Of a DNA stretch of 64,000 nucleotides, positions 77-19,235 are shown one piece after another; position 1 is the stretch's first letter, and each line of letters begins with the position of its first letter. Source of the stretch: an uncultured delta proteobacterium (GTDB lineage Bacteria; Myxococcota_A; Polyangia; Polyangiales; Polyangiaceae). The notes under the pieces are model-generated. The model worked only from the letters and a program-made list of their open reading frames with translations, was not told the origin of the DNA and made no database searches. Made by a program: the position numbers and the translations under genes. The stretch lies in NCBI GenBank assembly GCA_963782055.1, contig CAWAIF010000003.1:1600001-1664000 (forward strand), in the 5' to 3' direction.

Positions 77-3000
77 ATGACGACAATCGCGGAAGAGGCG
101 CACGACATCGGTGCGTTGCTGCGACGCGCTGCGGTCGAGCGCGATCCGGTGCCGTCGCTCCTGCTCGCGCTGCGGTGGCGTCGTGCCGCCGGCCCCGAGG
201 ACAGGCAGGCCGTCGAGGCGCGCGTCGTCGACGCGGCGACGGCCTCGTACGAGGGACTCGCGGGCCTGGTCCGGGCCATTCACATCTACTGGCCGGAGGG
301 ACTGCTGGCGCCGCCGGTGCGTGCCTCCCTCCACGTCGCGCTGGAGGCGGGGCGGTTCGAGGCGCACGAGCTGTTCCACGTGCTCTCCCCGCTGCTCGCG
401 GCGGAGGACCGCTTCGAGGAGCTGCTCGCGCACTCGGAGAGGCTGGGGCTCGGCGCGCGGCTGCGCCTGGCGACGCTGTGCCAGCGGCTGGCGACCGCGG
501 TGCAGGTGTTCGGGCCGGAGGCCTTCGTCCCGGGCGAGCGCGAGCGCGCGTTCGACACCGTGCTCGAGCGGCTCTTCGAGGACCGCGACGCCGGCGTGGC
601 GCTGCGCGCCGCGTGGGCGGTCGGCGTCCGGGCCGCGGCGTCCAAGCCCTGGCGCGGCCGCCTCGCCGCCCTCTCGCGCGACGCTTCGCCGCGGCGCAAG
701 CGCCGGGCCCTGGCGGCGCGCACCGCGCTCTGGGTGCTCGGGGAGGACGCCTGGGACTACGAGCGGGAGCTCACGTCTGGGCTGGGCAAGACCGACCCGT
801 ACGCGCGCGCGACGGCCCTGCTCGCGATGCGGTTCGGCGTCCGCATCGCCCCGGGCACGGTGGCGGCGATGGCGGAGCAGCTCGTGTCGCGGTCCGCGCC
901 GGTGGAGGTGCTCGTCGCGGCGCTCGAGCTCGCGCGCGTGCACCCTGACGAGGCGCTCCGCACGCACGTCGCCGAGCGCGCGGAGGTCGAGCGGCCTCCG
1001 GCGGAGCTCGCGATCCTGCTCCGGCGGACCGCGCCCGGAGCGCCGGGCGGCGCGGCCGGCATCGTGGAGCTCGGCGACGCGCTCGTGGAAGCCTCCGCCG
1101 TGTCGCCTGGCGAGGCATCGCGCGCGGCGGCGGCGCTCGCGCGGCGACTCTCGCGCGGGATCAGCGGCGACGCCGAGGAGCAGGAGGCCTGCGAGCGGGT
1201 GCTCTTCGACGGGACGCTCTTTCGCGACGCGCTCGTCATCGGGGCCCGTACGCCCGCCGCCCGTCGCGAGGCGTACGAGGTGTGGGTGGGCGCGGTGGCC
1301 GCGTGCCGTGAGGCGCGCCTCGCCGCGCTGGGTGAGGGGGATGCGCGGGAGCGGACCGCGGCGTGGCGGCGCGCGGCCAGGGCGCTCGACGCGTCCCCGC
1401 GCGGCATCCGGCGGGACGGGGCGCCGGACGCGGAGGCCCGCAGCCCGGTGCGCCGGGACGCGGCGCGCGTCCGCCTCGCGAGCGCCGCGCGCCTGGCCGG
1501 CCGCGCCGACTCGATGGAGGAGCGTCCGGCGATCGGCGCCCTCCTCGTCGCCGCCGACATCGAGGCCGTGGTCGCGCCGAGCGTCTTCGGGGACGTGCTG
1601 GCGGCGCTGCTCTCGTCGCGCTCGCCGCGCGCGCTCCGCCACGCGCTCGATGGCTGCCCCGCGGGTGCGCCCCTGCACGACGCGCTCACGGCCCTGGAGG
1701 CGCTCCGCGCGCTCGCCGAGCCCCGGGGGAAGAAGGCGCCGGCCGTGGATCGCGACACGCTCGCGCAGGCGACGTGGCACCTCGCGCAGGCGTCGCTCGC
1801 GGTCACGGGGGATCGTGCCGCACCGGCCGCGGCTGCGCCGCTCGCGCTGGACGCCGCCGTGAGCCTCTCCCTGGCGCCACCGTCGTCGCCGGGCGCCGTG
1901 CTCGCCGCATGGAGCGCCGCCGCGCGTGCGTGCATCCGCCTGCGCGAGGGGGTGGCAGAGGACGCAGGCGCGCCGCCGCCGTCCTTCCCGAACGCCGCGC
2001 GCGTCGAGAAGGCAATCGTCTCGCTCTTCGAGCCTCAGTCCAGGCGCGAGCGCTCCCTCAAGGACGAGGCGGCGCTGGAGGTGCTCGCCTCCGTCGTCCC
2101 GCCCGCGCTGGCGTCGCTCCCGCACCTGCTCGGCCGGGTGCTGCGCGCGCGCAAGGCGCCGGCGGCTCGCCCGCGCCGTGACCCGTTCGCGCCGTCGAAG
2201 GTCATCGGCGACTTCGTCGTGGAGAAGAAGCTCGGCGCCGGCGGGATGGGCGCGTGCCTGCTGGTTCGCCGCCGGGCGGCGCCGCGGGGCGCCGGGTGCT
2301 TCGTGCTCAAGGTCCCCCTGAAGGGGGATGCCTTCGCCCAGTGCGCCTTCGTGGACGAGGCGCAGACCCTCATCACGCTGTCGCGCGCCCCCCACCCGGG
2401 CGTGGTGCGCTTCCTCGGCTACATGACGTGCGGCTACCGCCTGCCGTACCTGATCATGCAGCACATCGAGGGCAGGCCGCTCGACGGCGTGCTGAAGAAG
2501 GGACCGCTGCCCCTGGGTGCGGCGCTCCGCGATGGCGCGCGGCTCGCCGATGCGCTCGCGCACTGCCACGCGAGCGGTGTCACGCACCACGACGTCAAGC
2601 CCGCCAACGTCATCTCCGGTCCGGAGGGCGCGGTGCTCGTGGACTTCGGCATCGCCGGAGCCGGGAAGGACGGCGCGGGGACGCCCATGTACATGTCGCC
2701 GGAGCGCTTCGACCGCACCAATGCGCCGGAGCTCGCGCCCGCCGCCGACGTCTTCGCCCTGGGCTGCATGGTGCACGAGCTCTGGACCGGCACGCCGCTG
2801 ATGAACGTGCCCATCGGCGCGCACGAGGCGCCGGAGATCCCCTCCACCATCGTCGAGTTGAGCCGCGAGGTCGGGCGGGGCGAGGCGAGCATGATGGGCG
2901 TCCAGCTCGTCTTCGGCGTGCTCGCGCGGACGCACGCACTCCTCGTGCGGCGTCTCGCTCGCGGGCTGGATGGTGCGCCCGCCGCGCTGCGGGCGCCGCT

Positions 3001-3118
3001 CGGCACCCTCGTCGAGGCGATGGTGGCGACCGACCCGCGCACACGCCCGACCGCGGCGTTCGCGGCCGCCGAGCTCGGGCGCCTGGCGTCGGTCGTGGAG
3101 CGGGCGGTCACGGTATAG
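77..3118 (+). CDS. Large Ser/Thr protein kinase: long Ala/Arg/Leu-rich helical (HEAT/ARM-like) N-terminal region plus C-terminal Hanks kinase domain
   Basis: Kinase motifs LGAGGMG, VLKVP, HPGVVRF, HHDVKPAN (non-RD), DFGIA, GTPMYMSPE, DVFALG; TAGGAT at 62-67 lies 9 nt before the ATG. Confidence 0.85.
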   Translation: MTTIAEEAHDIGALLRRAAVERDPVPSLLLALRWRRAAGPEDRQAVEARVVDAATASYEGLAGLVRAIHIYWPEGLLAPPVRASLHVALEAGRFEAHELFHVLSPLLAAEDRFEELLAHSERLGLGARLRLATLCQRLATAVQVFGPEAFVPGERERAFDTVLERLFEDRDAGVALRAAWAVGVRAAASKPWRGRLAALSRDASPRRKRRALAARTALWVLGEDAWDYERELTSGLGKTDPYARATALLAMRFGVRIAPGTVAAMAEQLVSRSAPVEVLVAALELARVHPDEALRTHVAERAEVERPPAELAILLRRTAPGAPGGAAGIVELGDALVEASAVSPGEASRAAAALARRLSRGISGDAEEQEACERVLFDGTLFRDALVIGARTPAARREAYEVWVGAVAACREARLAALGEGDARERTAAWRRAARALDASPRGIRRDGAPDAEARSPVRRDAARVRLASAARLAGRADSMEERPAIGALLVAADIEAVVAPSVFGDVLAALLSSRSPRALRHALDGCPAGAPLHDALTALEALRALAEPRGKKAPAVDRDTLAQATWHLAQASLAVTGDRAAPAAAAPLALDAAVSLSLAPPSSPGAVLAAWSAAARACIRLREGVAEDAGAPPPSFPNAARVEKAIVSLFEPQSRRERSLKDEAALEVLASVVPPALASLPHLLGRVLRARKAPAARPRRDPFAPSKVIGDFVVEKKLGAGGMGACLLVRRRAAPRGAGCFVLKVPLKGDAFAQCAFVDEAQTLITLSRAPHPGVVRFLGYMTCGYRLPYLIMQHIEGRPLDGVLKKGPLPLGAALRDGARLADALAHCHASGVTHHDVKPANVISGPEGAVLVDFGIAGAGKDGAGTPMYMSPERFDRTNAPELAPAADVFALGCMVHELWTGTPLMNVPIGAHEAPEIPSTIVELSREVGRGEASMMGVQLVFGVLARTHALLVRRLARGLDGAPAALRAPLGTLVEAMVATDPRTRPTAAFAAAELGRLASVVERAVTV

Positions 3119-3126
3119 TGGCTCGA

Positions 3127-4362
3127 ATGGCCGTCGAGACGTCCACAGAAGAGCGGGTCGAGAGGGCGCCGGACGTGCCCGTGGCCCACGAGCGTGGCGG
3201 GCGGGCCGACCTCGCGGCGCTGCGCGACCGCCGCGCGCTCGCGATGATGCCCGTGGTGGTCTTCGGCGCGATGCTCCCGTTCGTCGCCCGCGCGACCGAG
3301 TCGCTCTGGATGGACGCTTCCCCGGTCGCGAAGGCGCGGCTCCTCGTCCGGCTCTGCGTGAGCTTCGTCCTGCTCGGCTGCTACCCGCTGGTTCTCGTCC
3401 TCGTGCGCCTCGGAGTCACCGACGTGACGGCGAGCCAGCACCGCTGGCTTCTCCGGGTGTACCCGGCTGTCACCACCCTGTGGCAGTCCCTGGTGGCGCT
3501 GGACGCGTTCGTACTGATCGCGTGGCCCCGGCTGGTCTCCATGCCGAGCTTCGCCGCCGATCTGACCATCTCCATCGCTGCGTGCGGGCTCATCCCGTTC
3601 GTGCAGCACCACATGACCTTCTTCTATGGCTTCGACGTCGGCACCCTCCTCCGCGCGCGCGCCCTGCTGGGCAAGGAGCCGAAGCTCGCGCGCGCTCCCC
3701 TGGACACGCTCGACTACAAGGTGTTGCAGCTCATCGCCAGGAGCGGCAGTGACGTGGCGAACGTGATGATCAACGACATGGGGATCGGCTTCCGCGATCT
3801 CATGCTTCGCCTGGCGAAGCTCGTGGCGCTCGGCTACCTGCACGTCGTCAAGGAGCTCCACGGCCCGCAGGTGGTCCTCTCCACGCTGGCCACCGACACG
3901 CTGGCGCTCCCGATATCGCTGTTCACGTGGGACACCGACGATCGCGAGCTGCTCGGCGAGCTCGCGAGCGCGCGGCTGTCGCTGGAGGCGCGCGAGCCGC
4001 AGAAGGTCGTGGTGGCGTGCGCGCGCTCGTGCGAGCGGCTCCTGCGCGGCGGACTGGCGACCGTCGAGCCCAGGATCACGCACGTGGGCAACAAGGAGCT
4101 CTCGAAGGCGACGCTGGGAGAGCTCGTGGGCGCCTGTCGGCAGCACAGGATCATCGGTCGCTTCGAGGACGGCATTTTCTCGGCGATCAACGAGCGCAGG
4201 AAGAAGATCCACGCGCTCGAAGGGGAGGCGCCCATCGACGACCAGGACGCCTTCGTGCTCTACACGCTGACCGAGATCGTCGCGCGTGATCTGCTCACGC
4301 GCCGGCGCGGGCGCGGGCGTCGCGCCGGCGACGACCCCGCAGCCGCGCCTCCCACTCAGTAG
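3127..4362 (+). CDS. Membrane protein: about 4 TM helices, winged-helix domain, C-terminal HEPN/DUF4145-like domain
   Basis: C-terminal part of ORF 2254..4362, restarted at ATG 3127, 8 nt after the upstream stop. Four hydrophobic segments; wHTH-like LDYKVLQLIAR...LAKLVALGYL; HEPN-like ACARSCERLLR...KATLGELV...INERRKKIH...DQDAF. Confidence 0.75.
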   Translation: MAVETSTEERVERAPDVPVAHERGGRADLAALRDRRALAMMPVVVFGAMLPFVARATESLWMDASPVAKARLLVRLCVSFVLLGCYPLVLVLVRLGVTDVTASQHRWLLRVYPAVTTLWQSLVALDAFVLIAWPRLVSMPSFAADLTISIAACGLIPFVQHHMTFFYGFDVGTLLRARALLGKEPKLARAPLDTLDYKVLQLIARSGSDVANVMINDMGIGFRDLMLRLAKLVALGYLHVVKELHGPQVVLSTLATDTLALPISLFTWDTDDRELLGELASARLSLEAREPQKVVVACARSCERLLRGGLATVEPRITHVGNKELSKATLGELVGACRQHRIIGRFEDGIFSAINERRKKIHALEGEAPIDDQDAFVLYTLTEIVARDLLTRRRGRGRRAGDDPAAAPPTQ

Positions 4363-7300
4363 CACGAGCAGAGCGGATCGCCCGGCGAGCAGCGACAGGT
4401 GGGCTTCGCCGAGACCTTCGGGAACTTCGGTCGCCGGACGGGGGGCGCGCCCGCGTCGGCGGCCGCAGCGTCGCAGGCCGTCGTGTCGCCCGCCTTGCAG
4501 AGCTGGACCAGCATCGCCTTCGCCTCGGCCGGGTCGGCGAAGGGCTGCGCGGGCTCCCCGGTGCCCGCTATGAGGCGCGCGCAGGACGTGGCATCGTGGG
4601 CCTGGCAGGCGCGCCCGAAGAAGTCCGCTGCGCGTCGCGCGTCCTTCGACACGCCGCGGCCCTCCGCGAACGTCTCGCCCGCGAGCGCGCAGCCGGTCGC
4701 GTCGTCCGCGTCGCAGGCGCGCTGGAAGAGGGAGACGGCGCGCACGGCGTCCTGCGCGACGCCGACCCCGCCGGCGTAGAGTCTGCCCAGGTTGCCGCAG
4801 GCGTGGGCGTCGCCGTCGGTGCACGCGTGATCGTACAGCTTGGCGGCGCGCGCCGGATCCTTCGGCGCTCCGCGGCCGTCCTCGACGAGCGCACCGAGCC
4901 CGCCGCAGGCGAAGGCGTGGCCGGCGTTGCACGCCGTCTCGAAGAGCTTCGCCGCGCGCGGCAGATCGTCTCCCTTCGTGGCCAGCGAGACCGCCAGCAT
5001 GCCGCACGCGGACGACGAGCCGGCGGTGCAGGCGCGGTCGTAGAGGGAGCGCGCGCGCGCGGCGTCTCGCGTCACGCCCTCGCCGGTGTCGTAGAGCACG
5101 CCGAGGTTGGCGCACCCGTTGGGGTACCCACCGTCGCACGACTGCTGGTAGAGCTTCGCCGCCCGCGCCAGGTCCTTGGGCCCACCGCGCCCCTCCTTGA
5201 GCATGATGCCGAGCGAGTCGCAGGCCTGCGCGCGGCCGGCGTCGCACGCCTGTCCGTAGCGGACGCGCGCGGCGTCGTAGTCGGTCGTCAGGCCGTGGCC
5301 CCTCTCCAGCGCCGCCCCGAGCTCGTAGCACGCCTGGGAATCTCCGCCGTCGCACGCCCGCCGGTAGAGCTCGGCGGCCCGCGCCGCGTCCTTGGGGACG
5401 CCGCTCGCCTGCGCATACATCACGCCCAGGCTGAAGCAGCTCGTCGCGTTGCCTCGGTCGCACTGCTTGGTGCAGTCGGGCGCGTCGCCGAGCGTGCACT
5501 CGTGAGGCTGGAGGGCGCGCCGGAAGCCGAAGGCCGTCGCGCCGGACCCCGCGAGCACCAGGGCGGCGCCGGCGCCGGCCAGGACCTTGTTGCGGCGCAC
5601 GGCCAGGCCCACGCGGTAGCCGAGCGTCGCGCCGCGCGCGGTGACGGGCCGTCCGGCCAGCAGCGCGTCGATGTCCTGGGCGAGCTCGCGCGCGGTGCCG
5701 TAGCGAAGCGCGCGATCCTTCTGCGTGGCCTTCTCCAGGATCTTCGCCAGGTCCACCGGCAGCGTGGGGTTCGCCTTGCGCGCGGGGAGCGGCGCGGCGT
5801 GGAGCACCTGCGTGACGAGCTGCGCCTCGGTCTCGCCGTCGAAGAAGGCGCGCCCCGTGAAGAGCTCGTAGAAGGTGGCCGCCAGCGCGTAGACGTCGGC
5901 GCGCGCGTCGAGGTCGAGCAGGCTCCGCTGGAGCTGCTCCGGGGGCATGTAGCGGAGCGTGCCGAGGAGGGAGCTCTTGTCGCGCGTGATGGATTGGGTC
6001 GCGTCGCCGATCGCCGCGAGCCCAAGGTCCATCACCACGACGCGATGGTCCGTGGCGGTCACCATCAGGTTCCCGGGCTTGAGGTCTCGGTGGAGAATCC
6101 CCGCGTCGTGCAGCGCCTGCACGGCGAGCGCGGCGTCGCGGAAGAGGCGCGTGAGCTTGCGGACGCGCTCCACGCCCGTCTCGGCGATGGGATCCGGGCG
6201 CGCGGGGGCTGCCTTCGCCGTGTCGGCGAGCGCCGCGGCCTTCACCTTCCGCACGCCGCTCGACGCGGTCGCGATCGCGGCGTCCAGGCTGTCGCTCGAC
6301 GCGAGCGCGCCGGCCACCTCCGACAGGTCGGCGCCCTCGATGAGCTCCATCGCGTAGTAGTGCGTGTCGCCGCGCTTGCCGGAGGTGAGGATCTTGACGA
6401 CGTTCGGGTGGTCGCAGCGTGACAGCGACTGGATCTCGCGCCGGAACCTCGCCACCGCGACCGGGTCGTCGGCGGTCCCGGGGGCGAGCATCTTGAGGGC
6501 GACGAGGCGGCCGAGGCTCTCCTGCCGCGCGAGGTGCACGACGCCCATCCCGCCCTCCCCGAGCTTGCCTAGCAGGGTGTAGTCGCCGAACTGGTCGTCG
6601 CGCGGCGCCTCCTCCGCGCGCGCGGTCAGCGGCGCGGCGTGCAGCAGCGCCACGACGTCCTGTTCCACGGAGGGGAACTCCTCGGCGAGGGCCTTGCCCC
6701 TCAGCGCCTCGCCGCCGACGTAGTCCAGGAAGGAGCAGCCGGAGCCTCCGCGCCCGTTGAAGTACAGCACCTGCTCGCGCAGCTCGGACTCGCGGAAGAG
6801 CAGCCATGGGTGCAGGGGGGTGAAGGTGTCCTCGCGCATCGCCCACAGCCGGCGTGGCAGGACGTCCTCGGGGAGCGGCGTGCCGCGCGGGTCGAGCACG
6901 AGGGGCGTCTCGTCGGACAGGTCGAGCAGCCTGCCCGTGCGCGTGCCGTCGGGCCCGACCTCCACGGAGTCGACGAACACGACCTTCGTGCCAGGCGCGA
7001 GGAAGAGGCCCTCGTGCCACGCGGCGTCCAGGCCCGCCACGAGCGTGGTCGCCGCGTCGTCGTAGAACGCGGCTCCGCGCGTGGAGCCGTGACCGAGGAC
7101 CTGGTTCCGGTACGCGGGCACGCCGTCAAGCAGTCGGCGCGGCGTGACCGAACGGCTGCCGTCCGGCTTGCCCTTGACGACCTCGGAGAAGAGCGAGCTC
7201 ACGGCCAGGACGGCCGGGTCGTCGAGCCGCGCGTCGCGGGTGTCGATCGCGCGCACGAAGTGGCCGATGGACGGCATGGCGAGGGTGCCCGCGTCCGCGG

Positions 7301-7451
7301 GAGGCCGGGCCGCCACCGTCAGGCGAATGGACGCCTCCCACGCGTAGTACGCGGTGTCATGGCGCTCCTTGGGCGACTTCGCGTTGTGCGCGCGACGCCG
7401 GAGCGCGGCCACGGGCAGCGGCAAGGCGGACCGGGATACGACGCGGGGCAT
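4356..7451 (-). CDS. Receptor-type Ser/Thr kinase: N-terminal HEPN-like domain, kinase, TM helix, Sel1-like repeats, Cys-rich tail
   Basis: YRNQVLGHG; LGEGGMGVV, VALKML, HRDLKPGN, DLGLA, GTLRYMPPE; TM VLAGAGAALVLAGSGATAFGF; repeats of the form C..LG..Y..G.GV..D..RA..LY.RAC; ends CRCSPGDPLCSCY. Confidence 0.9.
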   Translation of the reverse strand: MPRVVSRSALPLPVAALRRRAHNAKSPKERHDTAYYAWEASIRLTVAARPPADAGTLAMPSIGHFVRAIDTRDARLDDPAVLAVSSLFSEVVKGKPDGSRSVTPRRLLDGVPAYRNQVLGHGSTRGAAFYDDAATTLVAGLDAAWHEGLFLAPGTKVVFVDSVEVGPDGTRTGRLLDLSDETPLVLDPRGTPLPEDVLPRRLWAMREDTFTPLHPWLLFRESELREQVLYFNGRGGSGCSFLDYVGGEALRGKALAEEFPSVEQDVVALLHAAPLTARAEEAPRDDQFGDYTLLGKLGEGGMGVVHLARQESLGRLVALKMLAPGTADDPVAVARFRREIQSLSRCDHPNVVKILTSGKRGDTHYYAMELIEGADLSEVAGALASSDSLDAAIATASSGVRKVKAAALADTAKAAPARPDPIAETGVERVRKLTRLFRDAALAVQALHDAGILHRDLKPGNLMVTATDHRVVVMDLGLAAIGDATQSITRDKSSLLGTLRYMPPEQLQRSLLDLDARADVYALAATFYELFTGRAFFDGETEAQLVTQVLHAAPLPARKANPTLPVDLAKILEKATQKDRALRYGTARELAQDIDALLAGRPVTARGATLGYRVGLAVRRNKVLAGAGAALVLAGSGATAFGFRRALQPHECTLGDAPDCTKQCDRGNATSCFSLGVMYAQASGVPKDAARAAELYRRACDGGDSQACYELGAALERGHGLTTDYDAARVRYGQACDAGRAQACDSLGIMLKEGRGGPKDLARAAKLYQQSCDGGYPNGCANLGVLYDTGEGVTRDAARARSLYDRACTAGSSSACGMLAVSLATKGDDLPRAAKLFETACNAGHAFACGGLGALVEDGRGAPKDPARAAKLYDHACTDGDAHACGNLGRLYAGGVGVAQDAVRAVSLFQRACDADDATGCALAGETFAEGRGVSKDARRAADFFGRACQAHDATSCARLIAGTGEPAQPFADPAEAKAMLVQLCKAGDTTACDAAAADAGAPPVRRPKFPKVSAKPTCRCSPGDPLCSCY

Positions 7452-7515
7452 GGTGAGCCGGAGTGTACACCGAGGTCGTGGTCGGTGGCTCCACGGCCCG
7501 GCCCCCGCGCGCCCC

Positions 7516-10269
7516 TCAAGGACAGTCGCAGAGGGGATCGCGTCGCGGGTCGCAGTCGCAGTCGCCGCGCCTCGCGCGCCGGTCCTCGATCGGCTCGACG
7601 GGCGCCTCGCCGGGCGGCTCGAGGATGTCGGGCGCCCGAGACGGCGCGCGGGAGAGGCCGGTCTCGGTGAATCGCTCGGCGCAGAGGGCGAAGGGGAGAT
7701 CCATGGCGCCCACGCGGCATACGAGGCCGTCGGCGACGTCGCCGTGCAGCTCGACGTGCCCCGCGGCGTCGAAGGCTACGCTGCCGCCGGGGACCGGCGC
7801 GACGGCGAAGCGGCGGGCCGCCGACGTGACGTCGAGCACCTGCAGCGCGTCCCCTCCGGTCACCGCGACGCTGCCATCCGCGGACAGCGCGACCGACGTG
7901 GCGTGCAGATCGTCGAACGCCGCCACGGCCTTGCCCTTGCGCAGGTCGCGCACGTCCAGCCAGTTGTGCTGCGCGATCGCCACGACCTCGCCGTCGGCGG
8001 AGGTGGCCAGGGGCCCGCACCCGTCCATCTGGCGGATGGAGAAGGCGTCGGCGTCGCGCTTCTCCTCTGCGTCCGGGGGCTCCAGCCGGAAGCGCTGCGT
8101 CACTCCGTCGCCGTTCCGGCGCTGTTTCGGCCGCGCCAGGAGCGCGGGCACGACGCGCATCGGGGAGGCGCCGGTGCGGATCCCCTCCGCCTGGGAGACG
8201 ACCACCGTCCCGTCGGCGAGGAACGCGGCGTGCGCCGCGAACTCGTCGTAGGGGAGCTTACCCACCCGCGCGCCCGTGGAGGTGTCGAAGACGCCGAGCC
8301 ACGACGGGCTGTGGCTCACGGTGAGCATCACCCGCGCCCCGTCCCGCGAGAGCAGCGGCGCGTGCCGCTCGAAGCCGTCGCCGAACCTGGAGTGCTCCTT
8401 CGGGAGCACCACGTGGGCGAGCTCGCGGCCGGAGGCGAGGTCGAAGGTCCCCAGCTCCTCGCCGTCCATCCACGCCACCACCTTGTGGCCACCGGCGCTG
8501 ACGGCGATGGGGCCGCGCGCCGCCTTCACGTCGAATCGCGCGATCTCCTGCGCGTCGTCCGACGCGAAGGTGCGCATGGTGCCGTCCTCCAGCAGGGCGA
8601 CCACCCTCTTCCCGTCGGGGGTCATCACCGCATCGAGCGTCGCCGGCCCGGGCGCGATCCGCAGCGGCGCGCGGGATCCGTCGGTGGTGACGACCATCAC
8701 GTCCGAGGCGCCGGCGGTCGTAGACCAGCGCCAGGGTGGTGCGCCGACGAGGGCGATCGCCACCCGCCCGTCGCCGGACAGCCGCACGTCCGAGGCCGGC
8801 TTGCGCTCCGCGGTCGAGCGCTCCTCGCCCGTCGCGAGATCACCCACGCGCAGCTGGCCGTCGTCATCGACCCAGGCGACCCGGGCCGCCCGCGGGTCAA
8901 GCAGGAAGCGGTCGTGTCGCGCGAGGTGAAGTGTGACCTTCCCCGAGGGGAGGGCGACGAAGCGTCGCTCCTCCGCGTGCTTTCCCGCCCGCGCCAGCAT
9001 CGACAGATAGGCGTGTCCGATCAGCTCGACGTTCGAGAACCGCCCCTCGCCGAGGTCGAGGGTCACGTCGCCGGTCCTGGTGTCGATGACGAGCACGTGG
9101 TAAGCGCGCTCCTGCCCGACGACGACGACCGCGAGCGAGCCGTCATCGGAGACCACCGCGTCGACGCAGTAGCGGCCGGCCACCTTCCGCCGTCGCTCGT
9201 GGTCGTCGCGGAGGATGTGCAGCACGTGGTCGGGCGTCAGCCGCATGGAGACCTTGCCGTCCGCGGTGGTCGCCTGGCACAACGGCTCCGCCTCCCGTCG
9301 GCTGCGGTGATGGCGCGTTCCGACGCCCCCGCCGCTCTGCAGCAGGGCCAGCGCGCCCGAGGTTCCGGACTCCCGTCCGGCCGCTGGAGCGTTCTTCGGC
9401 GCGGTCGCGCTGGGTCGGAGCGACCACGTCTCCGGCCCGGCGCCCACATCGAACTGAAGCGCGTCGCCGCCCGGTGAGAACGTCACGCCAGATATCCGCG
9501 AGGCGACCACCAGACGCCGCAGCTCGCGGCCGTCGGTCAGGTCCCAGAGTCGGACGGTCCCGTCTGCGGAGCCGGAGGCGATGCGCCGCCCGTCCGGCGA
9601 GAAGGCGACGTCGGAGACGTAGGCCGTGTGACCGCGCAGGCGGAGCCTCTCCTGCATCGAGGTGGCGTCGACGACGGCGATCGCGTCATCCGCCTCCACC
9701 GCGAGCAGTGAGCCGTCGGGCGACCACGCGAGGATCTCACCGTACCGCTCGGCGCGGACGGTCACCTCCGCGCGCGCGTGCGCGGCCCGCTCGTAGGCGG
9801 TGAGCGTCCGGTCGAGCAAGCGCTGCGCCTCCGCCGCGTCGCCCGCCGCATGCGCCCTGGCGGCGAGCTCGAGCAGGACGGAGGGGGCCTCCGTCCCGCG
9901 CCCCGTGGCGACGAGGTCGCGCGCCCGCTTCGCGGCGGCCTGCGCGGCAGCCGCCGCCGTCCGCTCCGCGTCGATGGCGTCTGCGAGGCTCGTCGCCGCC
10001 TCGCGTCGCCCCACCTCGGCGAGGGTGGAGACCTGAAGGTCCTCCATCGCCCGCGCGTGTGACGGGCAGGCGCGCTCGTCGGCGGCGATCACGCGCAGCG
10101 CGCGGTCGAGGCGGCCCCGCGCGAGCAACGCCTGCACGCGAGGCCGGGGCGGAGCGACGCGGGCGCATGGGTCCGGCGCGCGCGCTGCCGTCTTTGGCGG
10201 GACCGCCCGAGGCGTCGACGCGCACGCCGCCACCACCCACAAGCCCGTCGCGAGCGCGAGACGTCGCAC
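7516..10269 (-). CDS. WD40/beta-propeller lipoprotein with N-terminal TPR-like helices
   Basis: Lipobox VAAC; WD40 repeat [31 protein letters not shown]; ends [14 protein letters not shown]. Start set to GTG 10269, which avoids overlap with the divergent gene and has TATCTT 8 nt upstream. Confidence 0.8.
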
Positions 10270-10315
10270 GATCCGCGAAGATACCACGTTCACCGCTCTC
10301 CGCTCCGCGGCTACC

Positions 10316-13132
10316 ATGCGTAGCGTGCGGCTTCTTCCCTGCGTGCTCGGCTTGGTGCTCGCTCTCGGCTGCGGGGGCACGCCGCGGGCGCGCACGCCGC
10401 ATGCGCCCGCGGCGCACGTGGGACGTCCGCCGGAGCAGTTCATCCAGAGCACCCACTGGGGCGACGTCACCACGCTGGCCTTCTCCCCCGACGGCGCCTA
10501 CCTCGCCTCCGCGGCCGAGGACCGGACGCTGCGTGTCTGGGACGTGCCCCGCCGCCGCGAGCTGCGCATCTTCCCCGTTGACGGCGAGGTCACCTCGCTC
10601 TCCTGGGACGGTCACGCGCGGCTCATGGTGGGACGAGAGCACGAACGCGCTGTGCTCCTGGACGTGCAGAAGGGCACCGAGATCGCCGAGCTGGGTGCGA
10701 TCGCGCGCACGGGCCCGTTCCGCGTCCCGGGCAACCCCGCCCGCTGGCTCGCCTGGGCGGACCGCGGTAGTCACTTCGACGAGGGGCTCGCGACGTTCGA
10801 CGACGACGGCAACCGCGTCGCCAACCTGGAATCGCTGCAGGCCGTGGGGGATGCCCCCATCGCCTTCACCCCCGACGCCTCGGCGGCCAGCGTCGCCCCC
10901 CCCTTCATCGACACGAAACCCGTCCTGCTTCACCGGGTGGGCGCCAGCTTCGTGCCGGTGGACGTGAAGCTTCCCGCAGCGCCGCCCGACTCGCGCTGGA
11001 CGGCCCTCGTCCCCGCTCCAGGCGCCGCCGCCGCCGCACTCCTGGGCGAGTCGGGCCCGTCGTACCTCGTCGGCGCGCGCGCGCCGCGGCCTCTGCCCAC
11101 ACCGGCGGATCACGTGGTCCGAACCGCCGTCTTCTCCCCATCGGCAGACGCGCTCGCCGTCGTCCTCGCCGACAAGACGTCGTGGTTCTATCCCGGCGCC
11201 GGGTCGCTGGCGGTGGTGGACGTCGCGACCGACGCGCTGCGCTTCGCCGAGGCGCCCGGCGGCACGACCGTCCTCGCCTTCTCCCCCGATGGTCGCACCA
11301 TCGCCGCCGGGGACGTCCTCGGCCGCATCACCCTCTTCGACGCGCGCACCGGGCGGCACCTCGGTGCGTTCGGCCAGCGCATCGTCGGCGGTGGGTGGCT
11401 CCACTTCGAGGGCAACGAGCTGGTGGTGGAGTCGTGTCGCGGGGTGACGCGGTGGTCGCTCGTCACCGGCGCGCTGCTCCGCCGGCGCGCCATCAAGTGT
11501 GACGAGAAGCGCATCCGGAGCCTGGACCGCGCGCACGCCGCCGGCCTGACGCGCGTCGTCACCGCCCCGGACGGCACGACCTACGCCGGCGACGAGGACG
11601 GCAACCTCCTGGTGACGCGCGGCGGGCGCACGATCGCGCGCGGGAAGAGCGACGGGCTCGCCATCGAGCAGCTCGTGCTCGACCCGAAGGCCGGACGCCT
11701 CGCCTCGGTGAGCAGCGACCAGATCGTGCGCATCTGGGACGCGAAGACGGCGGCGGTGCGCGCCCTCTTCATCGCCTTCGATGACGACGAGTGGATGGCC
11801 ACCACCCCGCGCGGGGCCTACTTCGGCACGCGGGAGGTGGACGATCGCGTGGGCTGGGTCTACGAGGACCCCCTCGACCTCTACTCCTTCGCGCAGTTCA
11901 AGGGGGAGTTCGAGTCCCCGGACCAGGTGCGGCGCAGGTTGGCCGGCGAGGACGTGGAGGCGCCGACGTACGTGCCGCGCCCGCCGAGCGTCAAGCTCGT
12001 CTCCGCGCCCACCACCCCGGTGCGCTCGGTCGCGGCGACGGTGCGCGTGGCGGTCGGGTCGGAGAGCCGGGTCGCCGCGGTGCGCGCCTTCGTCGAGGCA
12101 CGGCTGGTCGCCGAGGTCCATCCCTCGCCGGGCGCGCGCACCGTCGACCTCGCCGTCCCGCTGCGGAGCGGCACCAACCACGTCAGCGTCGTCGCCTTCG
12201 ACGATCAGGGCATCGCCTCCAACGAGCTGCCCCTGGAGATCCAGAGTCTGGCGCCGCCGGGCGCGCGCCCGGACGTGTGGGTCGTCGCCATCGGCGTCAG
12301 CGCGTACCCACACCTGCTCGACCTGGTGCGGCTCCCGCCGGCGAGGCGCGCCCGGGAGCTGGCCGACCTGCAGCTGCACGCGGCCCGTCGCGACGCCGAG
12401 GCGATCGCCGGCGCGATGGGGGCGATGGCCGGCCCGGGCAAGGCCTACGCGCGCGCACACGTGGTGCTCCTGCCCGACGCGCGGGCGGATGGCGACTCCA
12501 TCCGCCGCGCCCTCGGCGGGCTCGCCGCCATGCGCCCGTCCGACCTCGGCGTGATCTTCTTCGCCGGCCACGGCCTGGAGTCCAGGCACGGCGACATGGT
12601 GCTCGTCACCGGTGGCGCGCAGCTCGCCGCGGACGGCAAGGGCCTCACGCCGGAGTCGCTCGCCGGCGCGACCGTGGGCTGGCAGGAGCTGGCGGACGCG
12701 CTCTCCCGTGCGAAGGGGCGAGTGCTCGTGTTGCTGGACGCGTGCCACTCCGGCCACTTCAACCAGGATCTGGTGCCGCCCAACGGCGTGCTGGCGGACC
12801 GGCTGGTGCGCGACGGCCGTGCCGGTGCCATCGTCTTCGCCGCCGCGAAGGGCCGCCAGTCCTCCTACGAGGGCGACGTCCGCCGGGACGCGCGCGCCGG
12901 CGCGGCAGCTGGGCGCGCGCCACGCGCCATGCACGGCCTGTTCACGTCCGCGATCCTCGACGCGCTGGCCGACGCCTCCACCGACCGCAACCACGACGGG
13001 ACGCTGCAGGCCTCCGAGCTCATCGACGCGACGACCGACCGCGTCTCGCAGGCGTCCGGCGGGAAGCAGACGCCGTGGGTCGTGCGGCGAGAGGAGTTCG
13101 GCGACTTCGCGTTGAAGCGCGTCGCGCGGTGA
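10316..13132 (+). CDS. WD40-repeat caspase-family (peptidase C14) lipoprotein
   Basis: Lipobox LALGC; WD40 [30 protein letters not shown]; Ig-like segment; catalytic dyad motifs FFAGHG and [13 protein letters not shown]. Start could instead be GTG 10325. Confidence 0.9.
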
Positions 13133-13141
13133 GCGCGCGCG

Positions 13142-13435
13142 TCAGTTGGTGAGGCGGATCCCGCGCTTGCGCAGGCACTGATCGTTGACGTTCTCGTAGC
13201 CCTCCGGGCACTGGCCCTGCGCGTCGGGCTCGGGCGGCGGCCCGGCGTCCTCCTCGGGGGCCGGGGTCGCCACCGCGGTGTCGCTCGGCTCGGGCGTGGC
13301 GGAGGGCGTCGGGCTCACCGCGTGGGTACCGGCGTCGCCGGCGCACGCAACGACCGCGAGCGCGGGCAGGAGGAAGGAAACGGCGAGCCAGGATTCCACA
13401 GTCCGGAGTATCGGCGGCCTCCGCGTCTCCAGCAA
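13142..13435 (-). CDS. Small putative lipoprotein (Pro/Thr-rich linker, C-terminal CPEGY...C)
   Basis: Fills the gap directly after the STAND gene; hydrophobic stretch followed by VVAC; start codon uncertain. Confidence 0.5.
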   Translation of the reverse strand: MLETRRPPILRTVESWLAVSFLLPALAVVACAGDAGTHAVSPTPSATPEPSDTAVATPAPEEDAGPPPEPDAQGQCPEGYENVNDQCLRKRGIRLTN

Positions 13436-13438
13436 GAC

Positions 13439-16400
13439 TCACGCGGACGCCGTCGTGCCGTCACCGCCACGCGCGAGGTCCTGCAGCTCGGGCGTCTCGA
13501 CGCCGGGGCGCCTGCCGAGGAGCTCCAGCGCGCCGCGAGCGACTGCGCGGCCCTGGTCCATCTGGCCTGCCGCTCGCAGGCGGCGCGCCGCGAGCACCAG
13601 GGCCGCGATGGGCAGCTCCAGCAGCTCCGGTCTCGGCTGGATGCCCAGCACCTCGGCCTGAAGCTCGACCGCGATCGCCGCCGTGCCGGCGGTGTCGCCC
13701 GCCTCCGCCGCGTCCACGAGGGCCAGCGCGCGGAGCTGCGCCGCGCGGAGCGGGTCGGGCGTGGCGCCGGCGCGCTCGGCCAGGAGCCGCTCGGCCTCTT
13801 CGTCTCGCCGGCCGCGGGCCACCGCCCGCGCGGCCTTCAGCCACGCGCACGACGCGGCGACCTCGTCGTTGTGGCTGCGCGTGGCGAGCTCGTCCGCGCG
13901 CGCCAGGACCCTGTCCACGTCTTCGCGGCGGAGCAGCGCCCGCACGTGGGCCAGCGTGAGGAGGGTGTTCGCCTGCTCGCCGAAGAGCGTGAGCGAAGCG
14001 TCGACCTCGGCCGCCCGGACCAGCGCCGCCTCGGCTTCCTCCAGGTGTCCTGCCTCCAGCTCGTAGGAGCCGACGTTGCCGAGGGCGATCGCCACCAGCC
14101 GCGGGTCCTCGATGCGCTCGCCCAGGGCGAGCTGCCTCCTCGCGTGGGCCACCGCCGCGTCCAGACGCCCGCGCTCGCGCTCCGCCACGCCGAGGTTGCC
14201 GAGCGCAGCGGCCAACGTGCGCGTCAGGCCGGCGCGCGTCGCGATGTCCAGCGCCTCCTTCCACAGCGCCAGCGGCGTCTCCAGGTCTCCAAGCCGCCAC
14301 GCCGAGGTGCCGGCGGTGATGCGCGTGGTGGCCCGCGCGGCGTCGTCCCCGCTCTCGTCCGCCCACGCCACCGCGCGCTGCGCCAGCGCCATGGCGCCCG
14401 CCCCGTCCCGCGACTGCGACGCGATGGCCTGCTGGCGGCGCGCCTCCGCGGCGTCCGCCAGCGCCCCGGCCTCGTGGAGCTTCTCGCTGGCGTCGGCGAG
14501 CAGCGTGCCCGCCTCCTCCGCGCCGCCACGCAGCGCGAGGATCTCCGCGCGCCGCACCCCCGCGCGCAGCGCCAGCACCCGCTCCCCCGCCGCGGTCGCC
14601 CCCTCGCTCGCGGCGGAGAGCAGCGTGAGCGCGTCGTCGAGCAGGCCGCGCTGCTGCGCGAGCAGGGCCATCCGGAAGCTTGCCTCCGCCACGAGGAGGC
14701 TCGCGCCCAAATGCCCTGCGATGGTGCGCGCCGCGGCGACGACCGTCTGCGCGGCGGCGACCTCCCCCGTGGCGAAGAGGCCGTCGAACGCCGCGAGCAG
14801 CGCCCGGGTCCCGTTCGCCGCGGGCCGCCGCGTCAGCTCCTCCAGCACCGCGCCCGTCGAGGCGTCCTGGGTGCGCGTCATCTGCTCCAGGAGGGCGCGC
14901 GCGATCTCCACCACGATCGCCGCGGCCGGCCCGGAGCCGGCGCGGGCCAGCGACTCGGCGGTGAGCGACGCGCGCCCCGCCCGCGCCGCGCGCAAGAGGA
15001 GCGTGACCAGCGCGCCCTGGAGTGCCTCGAACCGCGTCGCCCTCCGCGCGAGGCCGAGCACACCCACCGGGTCGCGGCAGGACGCCTCGTGGTGATCGGC
15101 GAGGAGGTACTCGAGCAGGCGAGGGGACTGAAACCGCACCAGCGTCCGCTCGCCGTCCCAGATCTCCACCAGCGCGCCCAGGTCCAGCAGCTGCGCGTAC
15201 GCGCTGTCGCGCTCCACGTTGCGCAGCGCGCGGCGCAGCGCCGGCACGTCGTACAGGTCGTCTCTCGCCACCGCGTCGGTGCCCGCGGCGTCGAGCTCGC
15301 CCGCGACCGAGCGCAGCAGGGCCCCGCGCTCGTAGAAGGGACCGGTCGGGTCGCCCTCGGCGACGACCACGTGAGCAAAGTACATCCGCATCGCGTCGTC
15401 GCTGGAGAGGTCGCGCGGCACGGCGCGCCCGCGGTACGTCGCCGCGAGCAGCCGCAGCATCAGCGGGTTGCGCATGAGCGCCGCCGTGGAGCCGCCGCGC
15501 AGCTCGTCGAAGGGCGTGAGCGGGCGGAAGGCACGCGTCTCGCCATCCTCCGTCTCCGCGCGGTGCTCGCGGTAGCGCGCGTACAGCTCCGCCACCTCGT
15601 CCGACTCCAGCTCCCCGATGGGGACGTAAGGCACCCGTCGCATCTGCGCGCCGGCGCGCTGCTCGGTGGCGAAGTAGCGCGTCCCCTCCAGCCGCCCGAA
15701 CCGCGACTCCGCGGGCAGGCGCTCCCACGTGCCGGCCCCCATCGTGGCGATCACGCGCACCCAGGGGTAGTCGCTCACCTGCCGCACCAGGGCGTCGAGC
15801 GACCCGACGAGTGCGCCCAGGTCCCCGGTGTGCTCGTTCAGCCCGTCGACGAGGACCCAGAGGCGCCGCCCCGCCCGAGCGAAGGCGCGGCTCGCCCCGC
15901 CGAGGAAGTCCTCGAAGAAGGTGTCGCGGAGGCCGAGGTCGCGCAGCACGCGCGACTGCAGGTCCGCGCCGGGGAGCGCGGCGGCGCGATAGAGCAGCAC
16001 GACGTCGCCCTGCTGCGCGCGGCGCAGGGCGTGCTCGGCGAGGAGGGTCGTCTTGCCACTCCCGCTCGCCCCCGCGAAGACCAGCGCCCGGCAGTCAGAG
16101 GCGTCGAGCTCGCCCACCGGTCGTGTGACGGCGCGGGGCAGGACGACGACGCCGGGCAGGTAGCGACCGGACGCGACGAGCTCGCTCATCGCCGGCCCGG
16201 TCACGCGGCTCGCCGCCTCGCGCAATGCGTCCACGCTCAGGTCGCCGAGGCGCAGCAGCCTGGCGTCGGTGGCCTTCTGCGCGAGCAGCGCGCGCCAAGC
16301 CGCCGCGCGCCCCTGCCGCTCCACGTGCGCGCCCTGGGTGCCGGCGTAGATGAGCGTGGAGCGCGTGTTGCCCTCGAAGAGCAGCACGTCGTCGCCGCCC

Positions 16401-17236
16401 TCGCCCCTGTCGAAGAGCGGGTCGAGCGCGAGCGAGCGTCCGTCCTCCGCCACGAAGGCGAGCACCTCCGCCCCGCCGAGCGTGTAGCGCGCGAGGAAGC
16501 GCGCCTCCTCCAGGACCTCCTCGAGCACCGGCGTGTAGAGGGCGAGCAGCTCCCGCGCGCGCGCGACCGCCAGGTCCGAGCCGTGCGCCAGCCCGTTACG
16601 GAGCTTGATGAGCGCCTGGATCTTGCCCAGCTTGCTGGTGCGGGTGCGCGCCTGCCCGCGCTCGTCCTCGTAGGGTGTCTCGGCGAGGAACCAGCTCCGG
16701 CAGCGCAGCTCCAGGTGATCGTAGGCCGCGGGCAGCTCGCGGAAGAAGGGCTCCACGCCCGCGTCGCGGAACGCGGCGAGCGCTCGCACCGAGAAGAGGT
16801 GCCAGACGCTGATGAGGGGGCGCTGGAAGTCTCGCGAGAGCAGCTCGTTGAGCTGCGCGTCGCGCAGGGGCGAGCGCAGGTACTGGCTGGCGAGCGTGAG
16901 CGCCCAGACCTTGAGCACCCGCGTGAAGGTGTCGACCAGGAGGCGGCAGCGCTGGCGGGGATCCTGCTCCACCGCGAAGCGCCGGTAGGTATCGGCGATG
17001 GGCGCCGGCATGCCGCGCACCAGATCGGGTGTGGCCTCGACGCGCGGTGGCTCCGGCGTGGTCACGACCCCGGCCGCCACCGCGACGCCCTCGGCGAAGG
17101 TGACCGGGCCCCCGGGCCGCAGCACCCGCGGCTCTCCCCGCGCGGGGACCAGGACCACCTCGCCGGTCAGCTCGTCGAGCACCAGGAGCCCGTCTTCCGA
17201 CGGGAACGCGGTGTAGCGCTTCAGGGGCGAGGGCAT
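13439..17236 (-). CDS. STAND/NACHT-like NTPase with N-terminal HEPN-like domain and C-terminal TPR repeats
   Basis: LIKLRNGLAHG; Walker A GASGSGKTT; Walker B LWVLVDGLNE; RNPLMLRLL (GxP-like); TPRs AAALGNLGVAERERG and AIALGNVGSYELEAG; start MPSPLKRY. Confidence 0.85.
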   Translation of the reverse strand: MPSPLKRYTAFPSEDGLLVLDELTGEVVLVPARGEPRVLRPGGPVTFAEGVAVAAGVVTTPEPPRVEATPDLVRGMPAPIADTYRRFAVEQDPRQRCRLLVDTFTRVLKVWALTLASQYLRSPLRDAQLNELLSRDFQRPLISVWHLFSVRALAAFRDAGVEPFFRELPAAYDHLELRCRSWFLAETPYEDERGQARTRTSKLGKIQALIKLRNGLAHGSDLAVARARELLALYTPVLEEVLEEARFLARYTLGGAEVLAFVAEDGRSLALDPLFDRGEGGDDVLLFEGNTRSTLIYAGTQGAHVERQGRAAAWRALLAQKATDARLLRLGDLSVDALREAASRVTGPAMSELVASGRYLPGVVVLPRAVTRPVGELDASDCRALVFAGASGSGKTTLLAEHALRRAQQGDVVLLYRAAALPGADLQSRVLRDLGLRDTFFEDFLGGASRAFARAGRRLWVLVDGLNEHTGDLGALVGSLDALVRQVSDYPWVRVIATMGAGTWERLPAESRFGRLEGTRYFATEQRAGAQMRRVPYVPIGELESDEVAELYARYREHRAETEDGETRAFRPLTPFDELRGGSTAALMRNPLMLRLLAATYRGRAVPRDLSSDDAMRMYFAHVVVAEGDPTGPFYERGALLRSVAGELDAAGTDAVARDDLYDVPALRRALRNVERDSAYAQLLDLGALVEIWDGERTLVRFQSPRLLEYLLADHHEASCRDPVGVLGLARRATRFEALQGALVTLLLRAARAGRASLTAESLARAGSGPAAAIVVEIARALLEQMTRTQDASTGAVLEELTRRPAANGTRALLAAFDGLFATGEVAAAQTVVAAARTIAGHLGASLLVAEASFRMALLAQQRGLLDDALTLLSAASEGATAAGERVLALRAGVRRAEILALRGGAEEAGTLLADASEKLHEAGALADAAEARRQQAIASQSRDGAGAMALAQRAVAWADESGDDAARATTRITAGTSAWRLGDLETPLALWKEALDIATRAGLTRTLAAALGNLGVAERERGRLDAAVAHARRQLALGERIEDPRLVAIALGNVGSYELEAGHLEEAEAALVRAAEVDASLTLFGEQANTLLTLAHVRALLRREDVDRVLARADELATRSHNDEVAASCAWLKAARAVARGRRDEEAERLLAERAGATPDPLRAAQLRALALVDAAEAGDTAGTAAIAVELQAEVLGIQPRPELLELPIAALVLAARRLRAAGQMDQGRAVARGALELLGRRPGVETPELQDLARGGDGTTASA

Positions 17237-17261: not shown

Positions 17262-18275
17262 TCACGGCGAACACGGATCGCGCAGGGCGATGTTCGCCCG
17301 GGCGAGCGTCCGCTTCGTCCCGCGGTCGACGAGGTCGTCCGGCATGGCGGCAACCGCAGCGCGCGCTTCGTCGCGGCCGCGCATCAACGCGACGACCGCC
17401 TCGTTGCGCCGGACCGCGCCCGGCAGCTCGGGGTCCGCGCCCGACCAGCGCGCCTCGGCGTCGTGGTGGCCGTCGCGCAGCGCCTCGCAGTAGGCGTCGT
17501 CCTGCCGGGCGCTCTGCGCGTCGGTGGGGTGCGTCGGGAAGCCGAAGGAGACGCTCTGGGTGAAGTGCGGGTAGGGCAGACCCTGCGGCACGCCCTCACG
17601 CATCCAGAGCACCGACGCCCGCGCCCACACGATCGCCTTCGGCCGGATCCCCGCGCGCGCCTGCGTGACCTCCCGCGCGAAGGTGAGATGGAGCCTGTGG
17701 TAGGCGTTGCCGCGGATGGCGGGCTCGACCGCGACGACGCCGCCGTCCCCCCAGCGCATCGTGAACGCGTCGAGCCCGCGCAGCGCCGCCTCGAGGGCGC
17801 GCAGCTCGTCCGCGGGTGCGGCGACGAAGGTGGGATGGAAGCAGGCGGCGAGCCGCGCGTGCCAGTCCGCGTCGTCGCCGTCGGGGCCATCGTCGAGGTG
17901 AGGCACCTCCCGCCGCAGCAGGCCCCAGCGTGCCCCGGGCGTCGCGGTGCAGGTGACGACCACGTGCTCCTCCCCGGGGACGTCGTCGCAGACGGCTGGC
18001 TGCAGGCACTGCTGGTCCGTAGCGAGCACCCGGTTGGCCTCCACCGTGCAGTACGCGTCGCGCACCTCGACAGCGGCGCGCGGCGCCGGGTACGGCGGCA
18101 GGTGGGGATCGTCCGGCGTGGTCGCCCAGAGGTCCAGGGTGCGGTGGAGCAGGCAGGACGTGTAGACCTTCGGCGGCTCCGGGACGCGCGCCGGGGGCGG
18201 CGCGACGGCGCGGGTGCCGCACGCCGTCACGATGGCGGCCAGCACCACGCCCGCGGATCCGGCGGCGCGCCTCAC
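17262..18275 (-). CDS. Hypothetical lipoprotein (probable paralog of the upstream gene)
   Basis: GTG start overlaps the upstream TGA (GTGA); lipobox VTAC; C-terminal part of ORF 17262..18836. Confidence 0.65.
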   Translation of the reverse strand: MRRAAGSAGVVLAAIVTACGTRAVAPPPARVPEPPKVYTSCLLHRTLDLWATTPDDPHLPPYPAPRAAVEVRDAYCTVEANRVLATDQQCLQPAVCDDVPGEEHVVVTCTATPGARWGLLRREVPHLDDGPDGDDADWHARLAACFHPTFVAAPADELRALEAALRGLDAFTMRWGDGGVVAVEPAIRGNAYHRLHLTFAREVTQARAGIRPKAIVWARASVLWMREGVPQGLPYPHFTQSVSFGFPTHPTDAQSARQDDAYCEALRDGHHDAEARWSGADPELPGAVRRNEAVVALMRGRDEARAAVAAMPDDLVDRGTKRTLARANIALRDPCSP

Positions 18276-19180
18276 GGCTTCCCCTTCGCGCACGGGTCCA
18301 CCGTGGTCTCGGCGCTCGCGTCGACGGCCTCGTCGATCGCGCGCGGCGCCATCGCCCGCGCCTCCTTCAACCGCCCGGCGAGGGCGAGCACGAGGGGGAA
18401 GTTGCGCGAGGTGGGCTCGTCCTTGCGGTAGTAGCTCACGATCGGCTCCCACGCGATCCCCGACGCGTCCCGGGGCTTCTCGTGCTCCATCCCGTCGCCG
18501 GTCCCGCGGAGCAGCCACGGCACCATGCCGTCCTCGAAGGAGAGGCGGAGCACCGCCTGCGTCGGATGGAAGGGCAGGGTCACCACCGGGCGTCCCGCGC
18601 GGGCGGCGTGCACGGCGACCGCCGTCTCGTCGGGGCCGGCGACTGCCGAGTAGAGGCACGTGCCGTCGGGCTCCTCGCGGCAGTGCCCGAGGAAGGGCGC
18701 CTCGTCGTGCTCTACGGTCACGATGACGTACGCCTCGCCGGGGGATGGAGGGAGGGCGCCCGGGTCGGCCGCGAGCGCCGCCTCGTAGCGCGCGACCGCG
18801 TCCTTGGGCCACACCGTCGGGTGCACCGCGTAGCACCGGGACAGCCGATCACGCAGGTCCTGGCTGGGGGACCGCTCGGAGTGCTGGGTGGCGGCAAACG
18901 TCGGGTCGAGCGCGCTCCCCGGCTCGCAGCGCACGCGCCGGCCGGCGGCGGTCTCGCGGACCACGCAGGTGAGCTGCACCACGCCGACGCTCGCGCCCGG
19001 CGTGGGCCACGGCGCCTCGCCCGCCGGGACGGCGCGCGTGTAGAACGTCGCGCGAAACGACGCGTGGCTGGTGAAGTGGTCGATCGGGTGCCAGTCGGCG
19101 CCGGCCCCGTCGGCGGATTCGTGCGCGCAGCCGGCGAGCGCCGCGGCGAGGGCTGAGAGGACGGCGAGCGCGCGGCGCAT
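18272..19180 (-). CDS. Hypothetical lipoprotein
   Basis: Signal peptide and lipobox MRRALAVLSALAAALAGC. Confidence 0.7.
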   Translation of the reverse strand: MRRALAVLSALAAALAGCAHESADGAGADWHPIDHFTSHASFRATFYTRAVPAGEAPWPTPGASVGVVQLTCVVRETAAGRRVRCEPGSALDPTFAATQHSERSPSQDLRDRLSRCYAVHPTVWPKDAVARYEAALAADPGALPPSPGEAYVIVTVEHDEAPFLGHCREEPDGTCLYSAVAGPDETAVAVHAARAGRPVVTLPFHPTQAVLRLSFEDGMVPWLLRGTGDGMEHEKPRDASGIAWEPIVSYYRKDEPTSRNFPLVLALAGRLKEARAMAPRAIDEAVDASAETTVDPCAKGKP

Positions 19181-19235
19181 CGAAGGCCGTCGGACGCGCT
19201 CGGCGGGCGGCGTATTCATCTGCTAAGCATGCGGC

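Follow-up and report, generated by a model that had tools for sequence, protein, structure and literature searches.

A predicted HEPN-barrel head common to a receptor-kinase family and a STAND-TPR protein, and a separate four-TM HEPN family, in one gene block of an uncultured Polyangiaceae bacterium

HEPN domains are defined by a four-helix fold, an Rx4-6H motif that ends helix 3 and an acidic Ex3[KR] motif in helix 2 (PMC3710099), and those with an RxH motif are described as dimeric RNases (PMC3710099; bioRxiv 10.64898/2026.02.22.705581); passages of the literature and PDB titles place LsoA, RnlA and Csm6 among HEPN proteins. The KEN domain of IRE1 and RNase L is itself a HEPN RNase, and the main HEPN survey lists kinase-coupled HEPN RNases under transmembrane (TM) control as eukaryotic, with kinase-KEN given for eukaryotes only (PMC3710099). 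Bacterial HEPN-STAND-TPR fusions and TM-HEPN proteins have been known since 2013 from the same source, and WD40-caspases with signal-like helices are also already described (PMC3501461). Here we analyze a block of seven genes, G1 to G7, at positions 77-17236 of a 64,000-nucleotide stretch (the window) of contig CAWAIF010000003.1 from an uncultured member of the Polyangiaceae. A sequence-only reading had proposed this block as an undescribed immunity or cell-death island built around three HEPN-like proteins, G2, G3 and G7. The data do not show the island as a system; what is new lies in the gene families themselves, namely G2 and the head module shared by G3 and G7.

G3 (4356-7451, minus strand) encodes, in order, a HEPN-like domain, an OB-like barrel, a Ser/Thr kinase (residues 289-600; HRD at 454, DLG at 475), a predicted TM segment (623-641) and a Cys-rich Sel1 ectodomain that ends in a CxCxPxDPLCxC tail. 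The head module (HEPN-like residues 8-156 and the barrel at about 152-251; window 6699-7430, minus strand) was delimited by an AlphaFold2 model, VIA rows and conservation. The model has a pLDDT of 95.5 and consists of a helical domain followed by a beta-barrel. In the VIA comparison, 8 of the 13 top rows were HEPN-titled chains or HEPN RNases (LsoA, RnlA, Csm6) aligned to residues about 8-156, and OB-fold chains aligned to residues 152-213; the Z scores did not exceed 7.2, and the tool flags such values as possibly generic. Roquin is a further protein with a HEPN domain. No KEN chain appeared among the 50 VIA rows shown for the head, a family that may be unlisted there. The head carries H31, E39xxxR43, Y114-R115-N116-x4-H121 and R125, with E39 on helix 27-48 and R115/N116 on helix 104-120 of the model, which puts them in the second helix and at the end of the third core helix, as the HEPN definition demands. 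A search with residues 1-280 against a representative library retrieved 612 representatives at E<=0.001, and the best 150 of these 612 were considered; trimming left 128 matches of sufficient length, which together with G3 form a 129-row alignment. In this alignment R115 is kept in 128 rows, H121 in 125, N116 in 123 and E39 in 119. The structural comparison gives moderate support for a HEPN fold in the G3 head.

The architecture of G3 recurs in its family. Among the 110 matches of at least 650 residues, a kinase follows the module in 100, an HRD-type motif is kept by a strict pattern in 78, and a predicted TM segment follows the kinase in 89. The hydropathy cut-off for the relatives was 1.9, and the TM segment of G3 itself, at 1.69, lies under it and is thus not called; it is preceded by a basic stretch, and the protein has 26 cysteines after residue 650 versus 2 before residue 600. 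Under the positive-inside rule for TM topology, the Sel1 repeats would be extracytoplasmic. Outer domains vary: a scan of 47 relatives found TPR in 11, FGE-sulfatase in 7 and WD40 in 5. Relative to 54 long relatives, G3 is 52% identical in the HEPN-like domain, 43% in the barrel and 55% in the kinase (49/54), and its Sel1 ectodomain was matched in just 1 of the 54. The alignments thus show a family with a constant head and a variable predicted sensor. The module is also fused to TIR (two proteins), to a DUF4145 HEPN domain (one protein) and, in some members, to FHA. Members that lack the kinase lie at L058 9420-11912, L061 9030-11642 and L069 9182-11203; in the first and last of these, the HEPN-barrel head keeps its motif intact and directly adjoins a predicted TM segment and an outer domain. 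At locus L064 (5914-11818), Sel1 is encoded by a gene of its own, which overlaps the start of a HEPN-barrel-kinase-TM-WD40 gene, mirroring the window, where a WD40 gene precedes the Sel1-tailed receptor; this Sel1 gene could be a split part or a partner.

G3 resembles IRE1 and RNase L (PMC3710099) in that a single chain combines an outer sensor, a TM segment, a Ser/Thr kinase and a domain of HEPN type. Their order is sensor-TM-kinase-KEN, whereas that of G3 is reversed (HEPN-barrel-kinase-TM-sensor), and G3 differs from IRE1 further in its inserted OB-like barrel and variable sensor. On present evidence, G3 is an analogue of IRE1, not a relative. That G3 on its own works as a ligand-gated bacterial counterpart of IRE1 with an active RNase we regard as an evenly balanced proposition; if it does, a bacterial family with the same parts reversed would be a case of convergent receptor-RNase signalling. 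We found no description of a HEPN-barrel-kinase-TM family in a literature search that did not cover subscription papers.

The same head occurs at the N terminus of G7 (13439-17236, minus strand), which encodes a HEPN-like/barrel module (about residues 70-330), a STAND NTPase and a TPR sensor, and so has the effector, P-loop NTPase, helical region and repeat sensor of STAND proteins. Its core contains a Walker A motif (GASGSGKT at 389) and a Walker B motif (VLVDGLNE at 461); Pfam matches were weak for NACHT/AAA_22 and clear for TPR. The N-terminal module (16247-17029, minus strand; D102, R213-N-x3-H218) is homologous to that of G3 over about 240 columns, barrel included. HHalign gave a probability of 90% when G7 was the reference and of 96.4% (E 1.3e-9, 241 columns) when a full-length relative took its place; shuffled-column controls (n=30) stayed at or below 0.5%. 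The barrel of G7 lacks about 45 residues that most relatives have. This link was detected by profile-profile comparison only: pairwise BLAST and single-sequence phmmer connected none of the three HEPN-like domains, and the hidden Markov model of the G3 head did not recover G7. G7 has 39 strong relatives. In the resulting family of 40, RNxLAHG and the Walker A GK[ST] are present in every protein and D102 in 37 of 39, with an identity of 53% in the HEPN-like region versus 25% in the TPR region. Pfam HEPN families matched the G7 head weakly (E 0.02-0.2), and a HEPN fold for it has moderate support, by way of its homology to G3. One relative (L019 11432-15570), located between seryl-tRNA synthetase and CobW genes, is broken into two frames close to the 5′ end.

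By layout, G7 resembles both the Avs/STAND antiviral receptors as described (effector-STAND-TPR; PMC13581612) and the Npun_F6454 group of bacterial HEPN-STAND-TPR proteins, in which a Swt1-like HEPN domain is combined with STAND, TPR and S1 (PMC3710099). It differs from the latter, compared by description only, in having no PF18731 match, and from both, as described, in that its head is common to a receptor kinase family. The Avs2 model NF041813 scored 29.7 bits on G7 versus a cut-off of 1000, over the NTPase stretch only, and similarly weak matches were obtained for 26 of 31 aligned family rows.

G2 (3127-4362, plus strand) is a different kind of protein, with four TM helices (residues 28-168), a winged helix-turn-helix (HTH; 188-253) and a C-terminal HEPN domain (269-397; window 3931-4317, plus strand). 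The fold of this domain is supported by its structural model: it has four helices, an Rx4-6H motif at the end of helix 3 (R357-x4-H362) and an acidic Ex3[KR] motif in helix 2 (E303xxxR307). R357-x4-H362 is kept in 51 of 52 family members and E303 is invariant, while no convincing Pfam match was found for the family. HHalign gave at most 1.2% probability between G2 and the G3 or G7 heads, so that G3 and G7 share one module and G2 belongs to a separate HEPN family. The three groups of membrane-associated bacterial HEPN proteins in the survey likewise combine TM segments with HEPN (PMC3710099); as described there, they have one TM segment, or two with a Zn ribbon, in contrast to the four TM helices and winged HTH of G2, whose HEPN domain is C-terminal and predicted to be cytoplasmic. 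G2 represents an unannotated four-TM HEPN family, new here; no description of this architecture was found in the literature, subscription papers not covered. In one relative (L016 15628-16461) the HEPN domain is lost and in another genome (L090) only a C-terminal fragment is left, consistent with gene decay.

None of the three HEPN-like regions was called at a useful score by Pfam, NCBIfam or PADLOC models. Swt1-like HEPN (PF18731) matched none of them at E<=1 and one G7 relative at E 0.066 (13.9 bits versus a cut-off of 27.5); searched genome-wide, this model gave no match, and none in the controls either. Foldseek returned no match at E<=0.001 for the G2 or G3 model, and the ESM Atlas yielded leads under 0.9 only. 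The claim of three HEPN domains in the sequence-only reading thus stands for G2 by structure, moderately for G3, and for G7 through its homology to G3, with the catalytic motif kept; its idea of HEPN effectors wired to three sensor types (membrane, extracytoplasmic and cytoplasmic) is supported, with the correction that G2 is of a different HEPN family.

On balance, we lean towards reading the block as an accreted cluster of self-contained sensor-RNase genes, each acting alone and probably in defence or conflict, not as one system. Under this proposal, pairing of two HEPN domains by the sensor would create a composite RxH active site, and cutting of cellular RNA would then halt growth. For G3, ligand binding to the extracytoplasmic Sel1 repeats would dimerize the receptor and the kinase would license the adjacent HEPN-barrel head, a reverse IRE1 in which the barrel may aid RNA binding. 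For G7, binding of a cytoplasmic ligand by the TPRs would oligomerize the STAND core in an Avs-like manner, and in G2 a membrane or nucleic-acid input through the four-TM and winged-HTH part would gate the compact HEPN domain. We infer the RNase activity, dimerization, ligands and defence role of all three. One head serves as effector of both the STAND-TPR family and kinase-less receptors and is also fused to TIR, which is new and would mark it as a mobile conflict effector. All three families are patchy. Counting the host genome, the G3 module occurs in 22 of 383 genomes of the family, G7 in 3 of 383 and G2 in 5 of 251, each with none in 6 congeners; the G3 head was found in 2 of 301 genomes of the phylum. 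Plasmids gave no match to the G3 or G7 head, and viral contigs none to the G3 head in a search for close relatives only.

A less likely account is that the HEPN domains are active in regulation, cleaving RNA in response to a stimulus as IRE1 does, in the development, predation or envelope-stress signalling of a multicellular bacterium, rather than in abortive defence. Such a role has been proposed for TM-HEPN proteins (Anantharaman 2013; PMC3710099). G3-family proteins do look like ordinary receptor kinases with an added head. Conservation of G2 is 60-78% in most relatives, and 8 of the 13 tested genomes of genus g102 carry it (one as a fragment). Housekeeping genes, moreover, flank the relatives of G2 (sugar transport, OmpA, redoxin, cyclophilin) and G7 (serS, CobW, ABC, cyclase), with no defence-type neighbours seen for either. 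Against this stand the rare, patchy distribution, the fast turnover of sensors and the occurrence of the head in fusions with TIR and with a STAND-TPR core, as well as the defence genes at some G3-family loci. In a scan of selected neighbours at 13 such loci, made with no background control and after five same-genus copies of one locus were dropped, three had defence-type neighbours (CARF-RelE with Csx20; an AbiEii-type ATPase; Schlafen with NACHT-HEAT), two had RHS toxins, one was ambiguous and seven had none seen. At L068 (9612-13723), the G3-family kinase abuts the CARF-RelE and Csx20-like genes.

That the block was acquired together as one coordinated system is unlikely. In this scheme, the WD40 lipoprotein and the lipoprotein caspase would feed the G3 ectodomain, G1 would regulate G2, and the G3 and G7 heads would cross-activate. 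The genes are tightly packed, with intergenic gaps of -7 to 64 bp and possible co-transcription of G1-G2, G4-G3 and G7-G6; the orientations, + + - - + - - as borne out by the seven open reading frames (ORFs) over 77-17236, are mixed. G3 and G4, which are co-oriented neighbours, both end in the CxCxPxDPLCxC tail (4356-4400 and 7516-7560), a type found in only 4 ORFs of the whole genome, and the joint probability of all three HEPN families is low. Each family is single-copy in the genome, where two DUF4145 genes occur elsewhere and DUF86 has no match. The test of their clustering is post hoc and its outcome depends on the assumed number (N) of HEPN genes: for three within 14.1 kb, P is about 1e-4 with N=5 placed uniformly and 0.15 with N=20 if only a quarter of the genome is open to them. 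With 175 kinase-like ORFs in the genome, a pair of kinases within 17 kb is unremarkable (P about 0.06).

Other genomes speak against coordination. Wide flanking regions were read around relatives of G2 (5 genomes) and of G7 (2 genomes) and around the G3 head at 18 loci (17 of the 21 other positive genomes); outside the host, no two of the three HEPN families shared a locus among the 29 wide loci, nor did they at 8 loci from metagenomes or at 7 short loci, the majority below 5 kb and many on short contigs. G2 and the G3 head lie on different contigs in three genomes, and in two near-complete genomes more than 1.6 Mb separates the G3 module from a G5-type caspase. A single partial recurrence was seen: 6.3 kb away from one G2 relative are a close relative of G5 and a divergent WD40 lipoprotein, the intervening genes being unrelated (chance probability about 0.5% in that genome). 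The outcome that the sequence-only reading had named as refuting it, homologues that do not co-localize, was largely observed, and a conserved multi-gene island is not supported. Equally improbable, in our judgement, is a single compartment-spanning immune unit, in which a surface signal would reach G3 after presentation or processing by the WD40 lipoprotein and the caspase, the plug-in head of G3 could pair with that of G7, and G2 would provide a backup. A reading of the head of G3 and G7 as a non-catalytic binding module of helices and barrel, co-located by chance in a signalling-rich genome, is very unlikely in view of the conservation and helix placement of R115, H121 and E39, the HEPN-rich VIA rows and, for the chance part, the low clustering P.

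Defence islands are local pile-ups of conflict-type genes. The block is like them in gathering rare, patchy genes of this type that are missing from congeners, but unlike them it has no PADLOC-recognized system and no adjacent tRNA (the closest one found is 57 kb away), and its GC content of 74.7% (top 1% of genome windows) is higher, not lower, than that of the genome. PADLOC, a check suggested at the outset, returned no catalogued system, only generic kinase, NTPase and caspase matches; the hits on G1 and G3 (PD-T4-6, Mad6, MkoA) are generic kinase matches and were rejected as system calls.

The remaining genes carry the expected domains: for the kinases (G1, G3), Sel1 (G3), WD40 (G4, G5), Peptidase_C14 (G5) and the weak P-loop with TPR (G7), Pfam agrees with the initial annotation. 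G1 (77-3118, plus strand) has a helical N-terminal region of ~700 residues and a C-terminal Ser/Thr kinase (GAGGMG at 720, K745, HHD at 837, DFG at 856), with no clear TM segment. Its family is very rare: of 7,993 candidates, 3 reached E<=1e-40, and two of these are full-length proteins; the N-terminal region was found in the host alone among 25 genomes. G4, G5 and G6 carry lipoprotein-type signals by the lipobox rule. G4 (7516 to ~10317, minus strand, start between 10287 and 10317) is a predicted lipoprotein (VVAAC) with helical repeats and WD40 propellers. An argument for a G4-to-receptor fusion was rejected, since the similarity of G4 to WD40 ectodomains is limited to short, generic matches between repeats. 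G5 (10316-13132, plus strand) is a predicted lipoprotein (LALGC, Cys19) with WD40 repeats and a C14 caspase-fold protease. G4 and G5 are divergent, with starts that overlap or nearly touch (10287-10318) and leave no promoter space; a similar divergent WD40/WD40-caspase lipoprotein pair with a short gap lies at L015 7557-12895. G6 (13142-13435, minus strand) is a small predicted lipoprotein of about 97 residues with no family.

G5 matched PF00656 with 38.2 bits versus a cut-off of 21.4 and is one of two such matches in the genome; its type of caspase occurs in 24 of 383 genomes of the family. Because the His752/Cys810 dyad is kept, G5 is likely an active but exported protease. The caspase of the sequence-only reading is thus confirmed, and its predicted lipoprotein signal, which points to export, weakens the cell-death interpretation. 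WD40 is given as the commonest partner domain of prokaryotic caspase homologues, with N-terminal signal-like helices common (PMC3501461), and G5 is an ordinary member of this group with a lipobox.

The host genome is 7.58 Mb, 71.6% GC and 97% complete, and relatives of the window proteins that carry a name belong to Polyangium, Labilithrix, Archangium and Sandaracinaceae, which points to a Polyangiaceae-like myxobacterium as host. No long DNA match to G1-G7 was found in five congeners, and an empty-site comparison with congeners was unsuccessful, given only about 70-85% identity and scattered flanking genes. No promoter or terminator consensus was found at the block, which is uninformative at 75% GC. 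Just upstream of the window (L021 11303-20000), the minus strand encodes an ABC transporter, an unknown protein, a subtilase and a TPR protein, and the plus strand two exported-looking proteins leading into G1; among the rows listed, none of these genes had a long match in the five congeners, and the accessory block may extend well to the left of window position 1. Past G7, at 17262-20276, are two unannotated exported-looking ORFs and a Kelch lipoprotein, with no long congener matches, and farther along the window an Rrf2 HTH-thioredoxin fusion is encoded at 34050-34754.

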